Assembly: GCA_030324005.1 (NCBI GenBank)
Contig: JARDVH010000115.1
Coordinates: forward strand, 39,800,270-39,862,517
Direction of reading: 5' to 3'
Origin: Negaprion brevirostris
Lineage: Eukaryota
DNA length: 62,248 nucleotides
In this document: positions 28,953-52,605 of the stretch, piece by piece
Position numbering within the stretch: the stretch's first letter is position 1
How the letters are laid out: each line of letters starts with the position of its first letter
Made by a program: the position numbers and the translations under genes
Notes under the pieces: model-generated
What the model saw: only the letters and a program-made list of their open reading frames with translations
What the model was told of the DNA's origin: nothing
Database searches by the model: none

Positions 28953-31467
28953 CTATTGTATAGGGAGAGGGGAGGGAAAGAGAATTGAAAATGGTTCAGA
29001 CAAGCTTTACAAAATCCTGCTAGATTAAAGTGAACAAATCTCCATGGTACCATAATAACAACCGCAAAGAACTTTTGTCTCAGTATTTCCAAATGTTCAT
29101 ATTTTTCTATAATCCCCATGCAGATGCCAGTTTTAGCTAATGACAATACAGTGACGCAAATTAGCATAACACATGAATGAATTTTATTAATTAAGAATGC
29201 CCCTTTCAATTTACAGATTTAATTTCAATAATTTTAGTTGTTAACAGAAAAAACATTTTTTTCAGGTTTCCCCCAGAGATGGGGAATTTTGTAAATTCCA
29301 AGATTAAAAGTAAAATCTTTTGTAGCCATTTGGCAGATTTGAGTGAAGGAACTCTTAAATATGCTTATTATATTAAATTGCTCTGAACCAGTTTTCATAC
29401 AATTATTTCCATCCATTTCTCAGGATATTTTCTATTTTACTAATTTGTTTTACAAATATTTTGCACAGGTAATCTGGTCAAAGTCGTGGCACAGACTTGA
29501 ACCGTATCCCCTTACATGCACTTCTGAGTTAGTTTCCTTCCGAAATATATATATTAAAGAAAACTGATTCTGTGGACTCATAGAATCCCTATGAGACTCC
29601 TACTCACTTCAGTGTGCAGACTGTACTCAGAGTACTAAATGAATATTTTATTGTTTAACTATCTTTCGCTCAGTCACATTATATAATTATGAGACCAAGA
29701 CTTCATTACAATGAAATTTTATGCAAAATAACTTCCACAAGTCTGCTCAGACTGTAAAGATTCCTTCAGTATCCTGTTGCTAACATACTGCACAAAGCAG
29801 AAGCACAAGAAATTTGCTGCAGATTAGTTATCCATCCATTTACCTGGAGAGGTATGAATTTCCCAGGAACTTGAGTGACTGGCACCTCTGCTACCTACCT
29901 GGCTGAGTTGACCATCAGTTACCAACACTGATGTGCTTGTTTCTCTCAATATCTACAGCACCACTGATAACACAGCATGGAAGTAAGCATTGCACTGACA
30001 CTTACAAAGAGCACAAGGATATCGAAACATAAAGTCACAACATATAAGGAGTAGGATGTAAGGGTAAATTATGTAACAAACACAAATTACACAGAATATT
30101 GATATGTATCATCTTTAATGTTTATTAAAAAATCCTTTAGTACAACGTTGGTGGAAGTAGAAAACTATTAATAGTTATGACGTTCACACATGGTACTCAA
30201 AGTGAGAAACATGATCATTTGAGTAAAAAATTACATTTGCCTTTAGTTTCTGATGTAGATCCACAGAGATCTCATTTGGTCTAACTGAATTATGCAGAAT
30301 ATAGCATACTGTATTAATTATATAAAGCTTTTCTGTTGTATTCTAAAGCTCTGTCAGATCTCCTCCAAGAATGAAACGATGTGTTATATCTTTAATGACT
30401 AAGAATACAAGAGTTAGATCATGGTATTATGCACCTGTCCAATTCATATCCATCACTACTCAGAAGTAATGGGCTTCATAAATTCTCTGAAATATTTTGA
30501 GCACAAAGCATCAAGATAGAATCCTTGATTTCAGAATAAAAGAGGTAAAGATAGTTTCTAGTTCTTCCTGCCAGCCGGATTTTCAATGGTTTGAACGGCT
30601 CGCAGCATCTACTGTGGGGGAAGCCCCCGCAACAGGGTCAAAAAATCCTGACCTGTATCAAACTTAAAGAAAAACCATTTAATTGGGAAAAGGTGAGTGT
30701 CAAGTTAGAAGACTGGACAGAAATAAAATAGCATTGAATGACGAAAAGATTAACGAGAAGGGAAGAATTAGAATTTCAGAGTAAGATGGCTATAAATATA
30801 AAGCCATATAAGAGTTTCTATAGATATTGAAAAAAGAAAATAACGAAGTGAGCATTGGTCCTATAGAAAATGAGGCTGGAGAATTAACAATGGAAAATAA
30901 GATGATGTCAGATGAATTGAACAGGTATTTAGCACCAGTCTTCACTATAAAGGGTGCAAGTAATATCCCAGCAATAGCTGTTAATCAGGAAATGGAAAGA
31001 AGATAGGGTCTCAAGAAAATTATAATCACCAGGGAAGTGGTACTGAGCAAATTACTGGAGCTGTGGGTTGACAAGACCAGGTCCTGATGGACTTCATCCA
31101 GAGATAGTTGATGCACTCATTTTAATTTTCTAAAGTTCCCTAAATTCAGGCAAGATTCCTTTAGATTGGGAAATAACAAAAATAACTCCTTCATTCAAAA
31201 AGGAAGAGAGACTGAAAGCAGAAAAATACAGGTCAGTTAGCTTAATATCTATCATAGGGAAAATGTTAAAAGCTGTTATTAAAGATATATTAAAAAGTCT
31301 GACAACACCAGGTTTTAGTCCAACCGATTTATTTGATAGTAAACTCACAAGCTTTCGGGGTTAGCCCNNNNNNNNNNNNNNNNNNNNNNNNNNNNNNNNN
31401 NNNNNNNNNNNNNNNNNNNNNNNNNNNNNNNNNNNNNNNNNNNNNNNNNNNNNNNNNNNNNNNNNNN

Positions 31468-32144
31468 ACAAACTGGGAAGCTTTTATCAAAACAAATTTT
31501 ATTTAACAACACAGATTAACTATAACAAATTAATTAGCTTAACATTTACCAATTGTTCAATACTTAAACACAACAATACAGTTCTTAACTGTTAACCTAT
31601 CTCTACAAGTTCCAATTCAAACAATATTTCTCTTAGAGATTTAAAACTCCTCTTCAAAACTGGTTAGCAAACACAGGTTTATGTACTTGCATTGGTTAAC
31701 ATCCTAGAGCTTTTTAAACACCTATGGAGAGACAGAGACTGAGAAACATCTGTCTTCTCACAGCCCAAAAACAGCAACCTCCAGAGATATAGAGACAGAA
31801 AAACACCTATTGTTTCTTTCAGAACCAGACAAAAACTGATTGTCTTTTTAAAACAAAACTTGCATTGTCCTTGCAAGCTCAGCTCTTCCCATTAGCACAT
31901 GACTTTGTCAATCTAATCAAAACCCTAGTCTGAAACCCGAAGGGAAACTTAAACAAACATAAATGCATTATTAGGTTTAGACAAACACACCATTGGCTAA
32001 AATCAGTCATTATCTTGCATTCTCAACATGGAGCTGCACTTTTCCAGACAAATTGGCACCATGTAAAGCAGAGCTGAATTTTAAACATACCCCTTATAAC
32101 AAACATGATAAATGTATATTTCTTCAAGGCAAAGTACCATCACA
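31468..32144 (-). mobile_element. LTR-like sequence with one end in gap
   Basis: Minus strand starts TGTGATGG at 32144, has AATAAA near 31500, and abuts a LINE fragment abruptly. Confidence 0.5.
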
Positions 32145-32808
32145 GAAGGTTCAGAAGGTGCTGTTTATGGAACCTTGGTGAGCTCTTGCAATTCATCTTA
32201 CAGATGGTACACACTGCTGCTTCAGTTGCTTGGTGGTGGCAGGAATGAATGTTTGTGAAGGAGGTAGCAATCAAGTGAATTGCTTTGTCCTGGATGGTGT
32301 CCAGATTCTTAGTGTGTTGTTTGAGCTGCACTCACCCAAGCAAACAGACAATATTCCATCACACTCTTGACTTGTGCCTTGTAGATGGTGAACAGGCTTT
32401 GGAGTCAGGGGGTGAGTTACTCACCAGAGGATTCTGAGCCTTTGAACTGCCTCTTGTAGCCACTGTGTTTATATGACTAGTCCAGTTCAATTTCTAGTCA
32501 ATGGTTTAAGTTTATTTATTAGTGTCACAAATAGTCTTACATTAACACTTAACCCCCAGAATGTTTACAGTAGGAAATTCAATGATGGCAATGCCACTGA
32601 GTGTCAAGGGATGATAGTTAGATCCTCTCTTGTTGATGGTCATTGCCTGGCAAGAATGCTACTTGTCAGTTGTCAGCCCAAGCATGGATATTGTCCAGGT
32701 ACATTTGGACATAGACTGTTTCGATGCGAGTCATCAGCACATGTCCCCATTTCTGACCTTAAGAAGAAAGAAAGGAATGTCATCGATGGAGCAACTGAAG
32801 ATGGTTGC
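32145..32808 (-). mobile_element. Diverged APE-type LINE fragment with SINE-tail insert at about 32505-32550
   Basis: Alignable by eye to 42905-43130 and 43500-43900. Confidence 0.75.
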
Positions 32809-33050
32809 AACCATGGGTTCATGTCGCACCATCTGTAACCCCCATGACTTGCCTGGGTTTGCAAAATCTCACTTACTATCCTGTCTGGAGACAATACACA
32901 TCTCTTTAACCTGTGCTTAATGCTATCTCCACTCACATTGTTGGCCACTTTAAGACTTGAATAGCAGGTTAGTTGTAAAGATTCGCATTCTAATCAGTAA
33001 TCTGTAAACTGTCTGTGCTTTATATGCTCAGTCCGAGGCCAGAACTCTCC

Positions 33051-33090
33051 ATTCACCTGACGAAGGGGCTAACCCCGAAAGCTTGTGAGT
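33051..33090 (+). ncRNA. Minimal type I hammerhead ribozyme motif (Penelope-associated)
   Basis: ATTCAC-CTGACGA-A-GGGG(CTAA)CCCC-GAAA-GC-TT-GTGAGT: stem I ATTCAC/GTGAGT, full CUGANGA and GAAA core, palindromic AGCT in place of stem III. Confidence 0.8.
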
Positions 33091-33455
33091 TTACTATCAA
33101 ATAAATTGGTTGGACTAAAACCTGGTGTTGTCAGACTTTTTACTGTGTTTACCCCCGTCCAACGCCGGCATACCCACATCATTAAAGATATATGGCAGGG
33201 CCCATAGAAAAATTCAAGGTAATCAAGGTAAAAAAAAATCATTTATTGGATTAATTAGAGTTCTTTGAAGTAACGTGTTGTCGATAAAGAGGAACCAATG
33301 GATGTACTGTATTTAGATTTTCAGAAGGCATTTAATAATGTGCCACATCAAAGGTTACTGTGGAAAGTCAAAATTTATGCTGTGGTGAGTAACATACTGG
33401 CATGGATAGAAGACTGGACGGGCTAACAGGAAACAGAGTAGGCATAAATGGGTCA

Positions 33456-34085
33456 CGTTGTAGGGCAATATCAGGGATCATATCTTCTATATTTTAATTT
33501 ATATGTCCGTTCATGTTTTATTTCATTTCAGTATAATATATACAGGGCTACATAGAGCAAGCCCAGATAACCAGAGAGAAGGAAAAGGCTAATGCAGACA
33601 GCAAGAGGCCTGCTCTGCTGAGATCATTCCAAACTATCACAACAATGGGAGAACTAGCATTAAGACAGCCAGGCTCCATATAGTCTAGGGAGGTCTTAGT
33701 CTTCTGTAAAGCATGATCACTGAGCAGATGGGAGGGGGGGAACGATTAATACATTGTTGTAAATCTGTTGGACAAATACAATGCTTTGACATTATAATCA
33801 GGTAAACGGAACTGTTCGACGAACTGATTAGCAAAGTTGTACTGAACAATGCAGTCTGCATCACAAGAGTAGAAGAACCATCCTGCATCCAATCGAAGAA
33901 TTAATATGCAATGTAAACCTTTGTGACTCAAAACCTGTACCAATCTAGCAGAGGCAGAGGAAGACTTGCAGGCCACCTGAGATTTCAGGCCGGAGTCCAG
34001 CTCTCCCTCATGCATGTAGAGTAAAAACTTGTCTTGAAGTTCAACACAGTCTCCAAGGCTTGACTTGTTTTATTTCTCTCCTACA
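33456..34085 (+). mobile_element. Solo LTR (630 bp) with 5-bp TSD
   Basis: ggtca|(c)GTTGTAGGG ... CTCCTACA|ggtca; interrupts the CR1 RT sequence cleanly. Confidence 0.75.
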
Positions 34086-37000
34086 GGTCATTTTCTGCTT
34101 GGCAAGAGGTAATGACTGGTGTGCCACAGCGATCAGTTCTGGCCCTCCAACTTTTTACAATTTATATAAATGACGTGGATGAAGGGAATGAAGATATGGT
34201 TGCTAAATTTGCTGATGATACAAAGTAATAAAGAGCCATTCATGGCCATCAAAGCAAGGAAGGTAATTCACGGTCAATGTTCAATGAGTGAAATCTGCCA
34301 ATTTTTGTTTCTTGGCTAAGGCAAAACCGACAGAAACACAATCCTACCAAATATTTTTCTGCTGCTGTTTGCCACTGCTGTTTTGATACCATCAAAATGC
34401 TAAGTCTTCCCATTGGGAAGGTGGCTGTTGAGGACTGCAGATTCACAACTCTAGTATTATTAATAGTGGAAACTTAAATAGGTCTCAGGATTCTTGGAGA
34501 TAACATACAGGGGATCACTTTCCATGTCTACACTGTCACCAGAGGCACACACTGAAACAACTGTGCGCAGTGCCCCAACAATTCATCAATGTGTTCTTGG
34601 CGAGCAAAGTTCCCAGCACTGGTGCCAACATAACAAATGACCCATATGACCTCATTTTTTATTCTCTGATAGATTCCATAAGTACTTACAATTACAGATT
34701 GCCTGATCCTGTGAATTCCCCTTCTGTATCAGCATACTGATTGGGAATATCCTCAACTACTAGAATCTCCATAAGCATTGTTTTATATGAATTCATTTTC
34801 ACATCCTGGGAGGCTAATCTTGCCTCATCATTTCTCCCTATAATCTATTCAAGAATAATGAGAGTACCTTAGCACCTACCATTTTAAAGCAAAAAATACT
34901 TCAACATCAATTATATTGTATATTTTATTAATATTCATCTATATCTAGGTTACAAAGGAAACAAGGTAAAAAAAAACTAAGTAGGAATTTTACAGTTTTG
35001 TGACAAATTAGAAAATGTGTTTCTTCTCAATATGCCATTAATGCTTTTCTTGACAGAGTATTTTGGCATCATTTCATCTGCCTGCCTTTTGGAATAAACT
35101 GAGCGCATTTCGTTTAGTACGGATATAGCATAATACTGACAAGGCATAATAAGTAGTTAAGAAAATGCTGAACATTCTAAAAATAGTGATGACAATCTAT
35201 GAAAGGAAATGCTATGCCATATGCCTGAATAATTTCCCAACTCTTAGTGATTACAACACTCAGCATATCATTCCAGCCAACAGTCAGAGTGATTTATGAA
35301 TTTTCAACTCAGGAACCAGTTTCAAACATCAGCAGTAAAATTGTTTAACTATGAATACTAATGTTCAGCATTTGTCACTCGCCAATATCATACTTGCACT
35401 TCAACGAGCAGTTAAGATGTAGCTGGTGCACTGAATGTCGCGTACTGTTGTGGATACATTTGTTTTTGTCCAGAAAGGCCATAGTTGAAGTTGCCTGATT
35501 GTGAGACCTGAAGAGTGTTTGTGTTTAAATCATGACTTACTGGTATCACAGCTAAGACAAGAATAAAAACAGTGGGGATGATTTTAATCCAACCTATCTG
35601 GATGTGGATGGGATAAATTGCTACTAGGACGGCAAAAATCAACTTACAGCCCATTTCCCGCAAGGAATCCCCTAGCCACCATTTGGATATTGGAGCTGAG
35701 TCTGATGGCGACAGGCAGGTGCCTCATTAATAGATGTATAATATAGGGAGCTAATTAGGGCCCCAACATCATTTTAGTTGAGCATGTTAGAAATCCTGCC
35801 CAACACCATCTTGTTGAGTAAAACCTTGCTTCACAAACTGACTGATGTAACTGAAAGTGCTCTTAAGAGGCACTTGACTGCAAGCACTCAGATCACTGGA
35901 ATTCCTGTGCTTATCTGGGTTTCCATGGAACTTCAGAGCTTTGAGTGAAGGAATGGGTGGGCTCAATAACTGTTTATGGAAGGCCTTATTCAACCAATGA
36001 GGTCTACAGGTCAGGAGTCACTTTCCTTGATGTAACTCAGCAACACTGCATCAGGAAGCTGCACAAAACCAGCTGAATTATACAGCCATTTAGAACAGGA
36101 CCTGCTTCTTGTCAGCCTATGCTTTGTCAGTTGGGTTAAAGGCACCATAGCCTTACTATTTTCACTTTAGGCTCCATCCATCCTGCTACAGTGATCATCA
36201 CCCATCTTTTCAGCACTCAGCTGCATCAAGCAGGTCACCAATATCCTTTATGCCAGAGTCAACCAATGCATTCCTTTCCCCATGGACGCCAACAGTCAGA
36301 ATAAGAGAGCTCTGGGATTTGTAGTGGTGGCTGGTTTCCCTCACGTGAAGGCATAAATCAACTGCCCTCAAGTGGCCACAGGATGCTAGAAGACAAACTA
36401 TCAACTTATGTCAACTGGAGTGCTTTCACTCCATCAATTGGCACAGTTCACCTCAGAGGAGGCTTGGCATATTTGGTAGAAGCTGCTACCATGCTTTCCT
36501 CCTATGGCACTCATCCATTCCCAGATTGTCCACCCACCCAAAGACAAAACAATTTGAAGACATGGGGCTAGCTCCTTTGCACACGGCTGAAGGTAACACT
36601 TCACAACCCCACTTGAGCAGCTCAGTCACAACTACAGCCATTTCTATTATTGCACATCACTGTGGCAGATGGAACTGGAGCCATAGAATAAATATAGAAA
36701 TTCAAGTGTTCCAGGACAGATAGGCTGCATTGCCATGGAAGTGGAGTGGCAGAAAACTGGAATGGAACCACTTTTTTCTTTGTTACAGTCCCTTTCAGGC
36801 AATTATACGATTCTCTGGTCTTGTACGCCCCACTACTACTCCAATGAGAATGGAGAATTTGGCACTCAGCCAAATCTCCATTTACTGCAGCGGGACTAAA
36901 GAATCCTAGCTGCAGGTGAGGTTGGAGAATTCCAGACAAAATCCACCAGCAACAGTGGAGAACAAGATAATTTTCTGCACCATCACTCCACATAGCCCTG

Positions 37001-37128: not shown

Positions 37129-37350
37129 ATGATGTGGATGTGCCGGCGTTGGACTGGGGTAAACACAGTAAAAAGTCTGACAACACCAGGTTTAAGTCCA
37201 ACCGATTTATTTGATAGTAAACTCACTAGCTTTCAAGGTTACCCTCTTCATCAGGTGACGAAGAGGGTAACCTCGAAAGCTTGTGAGTTTACTATCAAAT
37301 AAATCGGTTGGACTTAAACCCGGTGTTGTCAGACTTTTTACTGTGCCCAC
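37129..37350. mobile_element. Penelope-like terminal repeat folded back into a 182-bp palindrome (37164-37345)
   Basis: Arms 37164-37253 and 37256-37345 are reverse complements with 4 mismatches counted by eye; same family as 33051-33180. Confidence 0.9.
37221..37259 (-). ncRNA. Minimal hammerhead ribozyme motif, same strand as SLC35F4 pre-mRNA
   Basis: Minus strand GTCAC-CTGATGA-A-GAGG(GTAA)CCTT-GAAA-GC-TA-GTGAGT. Confidence 0.7.
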
Positions 37351-52453: not shown

Positions 52454-52605
52454 ATGATGTGGAGATACCAGCATTGGACTGGGGTAAACACAGCAAGAAA
52501 TCTCACAACACCAGGTTAAAGTCCAACCAATTTATTTGATAGTAAACTCACAAACCTTCCGGGTTTGCCTCTTCGTCAGATGAATGGAGAGTTCTGGCCT
52601 CAGAC
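52454..52605 (-). mobile_element. Penelope-like terminal repeat with mutated hammerhead, joined to CR1 fragment 52606-52733
   Basis: Reverse complement of about 33030-33180; core CTGACGA...GAAG (GAAA mutated). Confidence 0.82.

Follow-up and report, generated by a model that had tools for sequence, protein, structure and literature searches.

The stretch of DNA considered here, 62,248 nucleotides from the genome assembly of the shark Negaprion brevirostris (GCA_030324005.1, contig JARDVH010000115.1, positions 39,800,270 to 39,862,517; the whole stretch is called the window, and coordinates count from its first base), carries at 31278–33193 a Penelope-type insertion in which two inverted arms enclose about 1.35 kb of older-looking foreign DNA, here called the cargo. 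The structure is really present in the assembly and is correctly described, and the capture of DNA framed by Penelope pseudo-long terminal repeats (pLTRs) is itself already known. What is new here is the right arm, which on its diagnostic bases is a mosaic of two Penelope subfamilies, older in type at its 5′ end and younger at its 3′ end, and unique in that respect genome-wide. In the most likely reading, the cargo together with the 5′ portion of the right arm is an older, 5′-truncated Penelope copy embedded in old LINE/LTR DNA, whereas a younger insertion into a CR1 element supplied the flanking duplication, the left arm and the 3′ portion of the right arm. We give about an even chance to the idea that these were brought together by a one-off, homology-guided switch of the new arm onto the older Penelope locus, the flank of which was copied.

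The insertion is framed by a 13-bp target-site duplication (TSD), ATTAAAGATATAT, present as exact copies at 31278–31290 and 33181–33193 (plus strand; the right copy starts with ATT); at fixed offsets, the computed chance of such a match is about 1e-7. The host is a decayed long interspersed nuclear element (LINE), which we take from its motifs to be of CR1 type. Its second open reading frame (ORF2) is legible on either side of the insertion, at 30700–31277 (plus strand, by translation, with paralogues 69–75% identical) and at 33194–33460 (plus strand, with a weak RVT_1 match, E 0.013, below the cut-off), and in translation the frame reads through the site. Eight of the 14 CR1 paralogues obtained via the right flank run straight on into the left flank, so that the host must at one time have been unbroken. 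The break in a CR1 ORF2 at an exact 13-bp duplication, as reported in a first-pass annotation made from the sequence alone, is thus borne out. The host is broken once more at 33461–34080, resuming near 34100, and contigs of relatives or paralogues skip 33454–34148.

Between the duplications the visible order is an inverted arm, an assembly gap, the cargo and one forward copy. The left arm (31291–31367, minus strand) is the end of a pLTR of the younger (beta) subfamily, inverted and without a tail, and enters the gap at stem II of a hammerhead motif. Its partner, also beta, is the 3′ pLTR part of the right arm (33070–33142, plus strand), followed by a one-sided tail of 38 nt (33143–33180, plus strand). 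On its 5′ side (32814–32973, plus strand) the right arm comprises the final codons of the open reading frame (ORF), and the 3′ region, from a 5′-truncated copy of older (alpha-like) type; the first-pass annotation rightly placed Penelope sequence here, starting it at 32809 where the Penelope portion actually begins at 32814. One sister copy (L212) has a 115-amino-acid frame (YIGET...EQRL...DLGFMSHYL) ending at the start of the arm, which may be the end of a GIY-YIG endonuclease; a Pfam search of the ORF end, this frame included, matched no family. The minimal hammerhead motif lies at 33053–33088 (plus strand) and conforms to a published descriptor (PMC4209133), with stem I (UCAC/GUGA), the core CUGACGA, an unpaired A, stem II (GGGG/CCCC), GAAA and the palindromic AGCU. 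Its predicted fold forms stems I and II (z −1.6), and an Rfam scan of the whole window gave no matches, hammerhead included. Of the two arms originally called ribozyme-bearing, the hammerhead core is visible in the right one alone, the left one entering the gap at stem II. Inverted arm, one-sided tail and TSD together make up the standard architecture of Penelope-like elements, for which passages of PMC3846280 and PMC8557442 describe an inverted arm lacking a tail, a tail of 30–40 nt at one end alone and a short TSD; the tail is also described in one of PMC11167929.

The two outer arms (31291–31367 and 33066–33142, inverted) differ at one of 77 bases, as first noted. Unrelated long copies differ on average at 7.8 of 77 and come as close as one difference or none in just one of 406 pairs, so the two outer arms belong together. 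They say little about age. A 34-nt pattern containing the variants (ttttagtcc, ggggttagccc) that had been thought private to this pair has 1,366 exact matches in the genome, and these variants are therefore subfamily markers. We examined 92 sister loci from the first 100 listed of these matches (12 with 1.5 kb and 80 with 8 kb on each side), and 33 had the same layout of paired arms with a TSD (8–16 bp, including microhomology), which upholds the reading as a Penelope-type inverted insertion. Across the 30 sister pairs that could be measured, the arms differed at 51 of 1,396 bases (mean 3.7%), with no difference at all in 12; an identity of 76/77 is thus normal, and the claim that the insertion is recent is not sustained.

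For the subfamily comparison, 50 other long copies were divided into two groups and compared at 16 diagnostic columns, two of which had been used in defining the groups. At these columns the left arm is of the younger type, and the right arm reads aaaaaaBBaaaBBBBB, which is older at nine of the first 11 and younger at the last five, so that the switch would fall inside 32974–33069 (plus strand). Intermediate lineages exist. None of the 14 copies among the 50 that have the older markers at 32916–32920 also carries the younger markers at 33117 and 33139. Genome-wide, the older 5′ motif is joined to the younger 3′ motif at a single place, the right arm in the window, whereas its linkage to the other 3′ motif is seen at 104 places, a good number of which belong to a more distant family. 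The earlier view that both arms derive from one template in one event is not supported, the right arm being a mixture. The same mixture tells against plain transduction, in which, as first proposed, one read-through RNA (cargo plus Penelope) from a source locus would have been mobilized in trans as a composite unit: a single template should give one subfamily, yet the outer arms are younger and the inner part older. Such transduction would suit a TSD that surrounds everything and the roughly threefold depth of the cargo in one relative (see below), and mobilization in trans by pLTRs is proposed in part of PMC3846280; with no sibling copy or donor found in our searches of this genome, however, we think it very improbable.

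The cargo consists of an old long terminal repeat (LTR)-like sequence that breaks a minus-strand LINE, plus a 45-bp piece that we take to resemble a short interspersed nuclear element (SINE). The LTR-like repeat (31468–32144, identified by genome matches) belongs to a type of about 800 bp, other copies of which reach some 120 bp further left, a part missing here at the gap side; its best other copies are 73–78% identical. The LINE portion (32145–32808, minus strand) is a C-terminal piece of ORF2, and the best other copies of this LINE/SINE mosaic are 70–81% identical (the best 40 candidates being scored in each case). The SINE-like fragment (32505–32549, plus strand) lies within the LINE, and its loose ends run on into a family of repeats. 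At the junction with Penelope is a perfect 14-bp palindrome (32801–32814), spotted post hoc; palindromes of at least 14 bp occur in 0.2% of random 40-bp windows. With a divergence of 20–25% from its closest relatives, compared with about 5% between the arm and its family majority, the cargo is indeed older-looking than the arms, as originally proposed, and the suggestion that it is DNA from another locus is also supported, a separate older Penelope locus being the most likely origin of the cargo and of the 5′ portion of the right arm. Ordinary nesting, in which the LINE, SINE and LTR entered a longer Penelope insertion later, had been named as the alternative to this. It is disfavoured by the same divergence, by the LTR breaking the LINE and by the truncation of the right arm at the cargo, and it leaves the mosaic arm unexplained; even though the gap might conceal the 3′ end of the LINE, we find it barely credible. 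About 87.9 kb to the left of the window start, a related LTR is placed almost identically in a different member of the same LINE family; as a candidate for a leftover half of the older locus it was rejected, being a separate, complete and more distant LTR.

The junction between left arm and cargo is covered by a gap of 100 N (31368–31467), the size of which in the assembly is nominal. This is the commonest gap size (32 of the 90 gaps around the window and 90 of the 211 sampled), 10 N being next. The sizes fit the output of Supernova, which we infer from them to have been the assembler; according to part of its description (PMC5411770), 100 N stands for gaps that pairs of reads from constructs of about 350 bp have spanned, and the resolution of repeats reaches about 200 bases. 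Under this convention the left arm would lie physically near the LTR piece, unlike in a mis-join. An assembly mis-join would mean that the true insertion is a short fold-back of younger type, and that the contig crossed within the shared pLTR into a different, older Penelope locus, the flank of which would be the cargo. This would account for the mosaic arm, for the single cargo copy in contigs of the species itself, for the missing donor and for the threefold depth confined to the cargo in one relative; moreover, the switch interval includes marker-free stretches of 56 and 35 bases, 23 of the 33 sister pairs are broken by an internal N gap, and short-read assemblies are said in a passage of PMC8557442 to struggle with such structures. 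On the other side, the 100-N gap would by the presumed convention require read pairs linking the left-arm contig with the start of the cargo, which a mis-join would not supply, and a comparable mosaic occurs in just one of 105 copies with the older motif. A mis-join must be taken seriously, although on balance we think it unlikely. Among 32 sister arms that run into 100 N, 21 resume as Penelope at once, two more have a TSD within 250 bases, and nine do neither. Those nine (L093, L095, L107, L112, L115, L124, L131, L142 and L150) have non-Penelope DNA past the gap, with no partner directly beyond it and no convincing TSD, and may be cases of hidden partners or longer composites.

Contigs of four runs (X19, X1, X20 and X21) were compared with the window; none contained half of the words, and runs with smaller shares were not used. 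In these contigs an uncovered stretch proves nothing, and depth is no measure of copy number. X19 matched every listed piece without a difference, and we regard it as the species itself, possibly the same sample. The other three differ by 2.2–3.0% in the flanks and 3.0–4.3% in the cargo, so that the cargo has diverged from its counterparts in relatives much as the flanks have, which supports the template-switch interpretation. The LTR/LINE junction is spanned by contigs of X19, X1 and X20. The cargo/Penelope junction is spanned in X1 (70 + 75 bases) and X21 (68 + 47), and must therefore be real DNA that predates the split from these relatives; in X19 there are just 28 bases on one side, below the threshold. 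No listed contig spans the switch interval or either TSD (listed contigs end at 31256–31266). In X19, a run with holes, positions 32149, 32700 and 32722 each lie under a single contig. Cargo depth is close to flank depth in X19, X20 and X21. The roughly threefold depth of 31519–32888 in X1, assembled there as single contigs, points to further copies of the cargo with its junction, nearly identical to one another, within that lineage. A 355-base contig of half depth in X19 aligns over 217 bases (31578–31794), its other 138 bases lying gapward, and is possibly a second allele.

It is the mosaic arm, the greater age of the cargo than of the arms and the presence of the junction in two relatives that favour a template switch. 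In that event, an endonuclease would have nicked both strands, 13 bp apart, and both ends would have primed reverse transcription, one at the start of the tail and the other at a tail-less start 38 nt inside. The right strand might then have switched template, somewhere in 32974–33069, to the older copy (as DNA or as read-through RNA), and the growing right arm would have carried on into the DNA upstream of that copy for at least 1.35 kb until, inside what is now the gap, it was end-joined to the left arm. The same mosaic arm, with the TSD kept, would arise without any switch by reverse transcriptase if an ordinary fold-back had broken later at its hairpin and then, in the manner of synthesis-dependent repair, had invaded an older Penelope copy at an ectopic site from one side and copied its flank. 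Later repair of this kind is not separable from the template switch, but it leaves the donor equally missing and demands two events rather than one, and we regard it as decidedly improbable.

The insertion is like those of pLTRs from endonuclease-bearing (EN+) Penelope-like elements, as described in parts of PMC3846280 and PMC8557442, in its shorter inverted arm, short TSD, hammerhead motif and 5′ truncation, but unlike them in having 1.35 kb of non-Penelope DNA between the arms and a right arm of two subfamilies. For PAc (Poseidon, from Anolis), passages of PMC11167929 report that both strands are cut and extended in vitro, that two reverse transcription starts define the tail and that the cut motif is ATT; our TSD likewise begins with ATT, and two start sites would define the tail, but those passages describe neither template switch nor capture. 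In the rotifer Adineta vaga, according to the sections of PMC3846280 concerned, pLTRs and a TSD have been found around host DNA, in non-coding cases as well as in Pen3a-NRPS and in Pen1 spacers of 0.9–1.5 kb. The insertion would be similar in that, as assembled across the gap, unrelated DNA lies under one TSD, that no intact ORF is needed in cis and that the cargo is of about 1–1.5 kb, but in A. vaga the cargo lies between direct pLTRs and the empty allele has been shown, whereas in the window there is an inverted arm plus a truncated older copy, the cargo is junk and the structure is gapped. The layout with two direct pLTRs is not seen in the window, where a second direct pLTR could be hidden in the gap alone. 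LINE-1 is known, from passages of PMC11702581, to undergo twin priming and template switches and to acquire templated genomic inserts with the TSD preserved; non-canonical LINE-1 events thus share with ours two primed ends joined internally, extra templated sequence and an intact TSD, but LINE-1 is of a different class and its templated DNA comes from near the site, whereas for our cargo no source was found within 120 kb. No published pLTR capture in a shark was found among titles and the beginnings of abstracts, supplements and subscription papers lying outside this search.

A second composite in this genome (L039, at about 2.0626–2.0647 Mb of G000:C97, equivalent to L169, 3348–5352, reverse strand) consists of an inverted pLTR, a tail-less forward copy, 1.2 kb of foreign DNA, a pLTR piece, 100 N and a tail. 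Its TSD matches at 11 of 12 bases, it resembles the Pen1 spacers of A. vaga, and we count it in favour of capture by template switching. Two further loci (L014/L171 and L026/L170) have a complete copy, 1.1–1.4 kb of foreign DNA, 100 N and a second pLTR piece on the same strand, with no clear TSD identified in L014 or L026. A further candidate composite, L027, was rejected as two separate insertions in RTE-like copies.

Several results weigh against the template switch. The proposed switch interval is close to the usual break point of these hairpins in this assembly. Visible cargo is present in none of the 33 TSD-bounded sister pairs, whose visible foreign DNA never exceeds 33 bases. X19 shows one version of the cargo, at a depth like that of the flanks (3.65–8.75 as against 7.15–12.8, in a run with 48% of the words), and in X1 the cargo is about three times as deep as the flanks (22–26 as against 8.5–8.9), and so not one-to-one with them there. 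L039 also has a 100-N gap, and no donor for it was found among 40 scored candidates. Above all, copying predicts a donor, and the failure to find one keeps a mis-join in contention. Genome searches with the whole cargo and with its LINE part gave 17,614 and 13,401 candidates, and among the best 40 scored in each there was no near-identical donor; nor was there a copy of the cargo within 120 kb on each side (302 kb, 13% N). Patterns for three predicted junctions had six, one and seven matches (14), none of them fitting, and no copy of the cargo above 81% identity was seen in the genome or neighbourhood searches, short SINE-like pieces aside. These negatives are lower bounds, the assembly being locally 13–17% N. 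L229, tried as a donor junction, has 14 bases in common with the cargo end and belongs to a more distant family. The donor with the same junctions and no Penelope arms that had been envisaged at first thus did not turn up in the genome searches, and the idea of a composite mobile unit is not supported, there being no second copy among the 40 scored candidates of each search or within 120 kb. Neither the 302 kb nor the junction patterns yielded leftover halves of the older locus, which counts in turn against a mis-join. There is no sign of the cargo unit moving on in this genome, and under the template-switch reading junk DNA was captured in a single event.

The case bears on the way in which Penelope-like elements unite their two arms and take up host DNA. 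If real, the mosaic arm dates and orients the capture, favouring a homology-guided switch onto a resident copy over one long RNA, and a subfamily switch inside an arm becomes a simple sequence test for long-read shark genomes. The case is modest in weight, the cargo being junk and the assembly gapped. A more far-reaching idea, which we think quite unlikely, is that shark Penelope arms switch by homology to resident old copies in mid-insertion, with every old copy a potential donor of its flank, and that this donor region did so repeatedly (giving the three near-identical copies in X1) or has moved; were it true, subfamily-mosaic arms would mark, across a vertebrate genome, where Penelope elements have driven the shuffling of host DNA. 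The window contains two other Penelope sequences: a gap-free fold-back of 215 bp at 37131–37345, with its tail on the left arm and no evident TSD, and a 5′-truncated copy of the older type at 52456–52605 (minus strand), after which come a 3′ piece of CR1 and a gap of 100 N.

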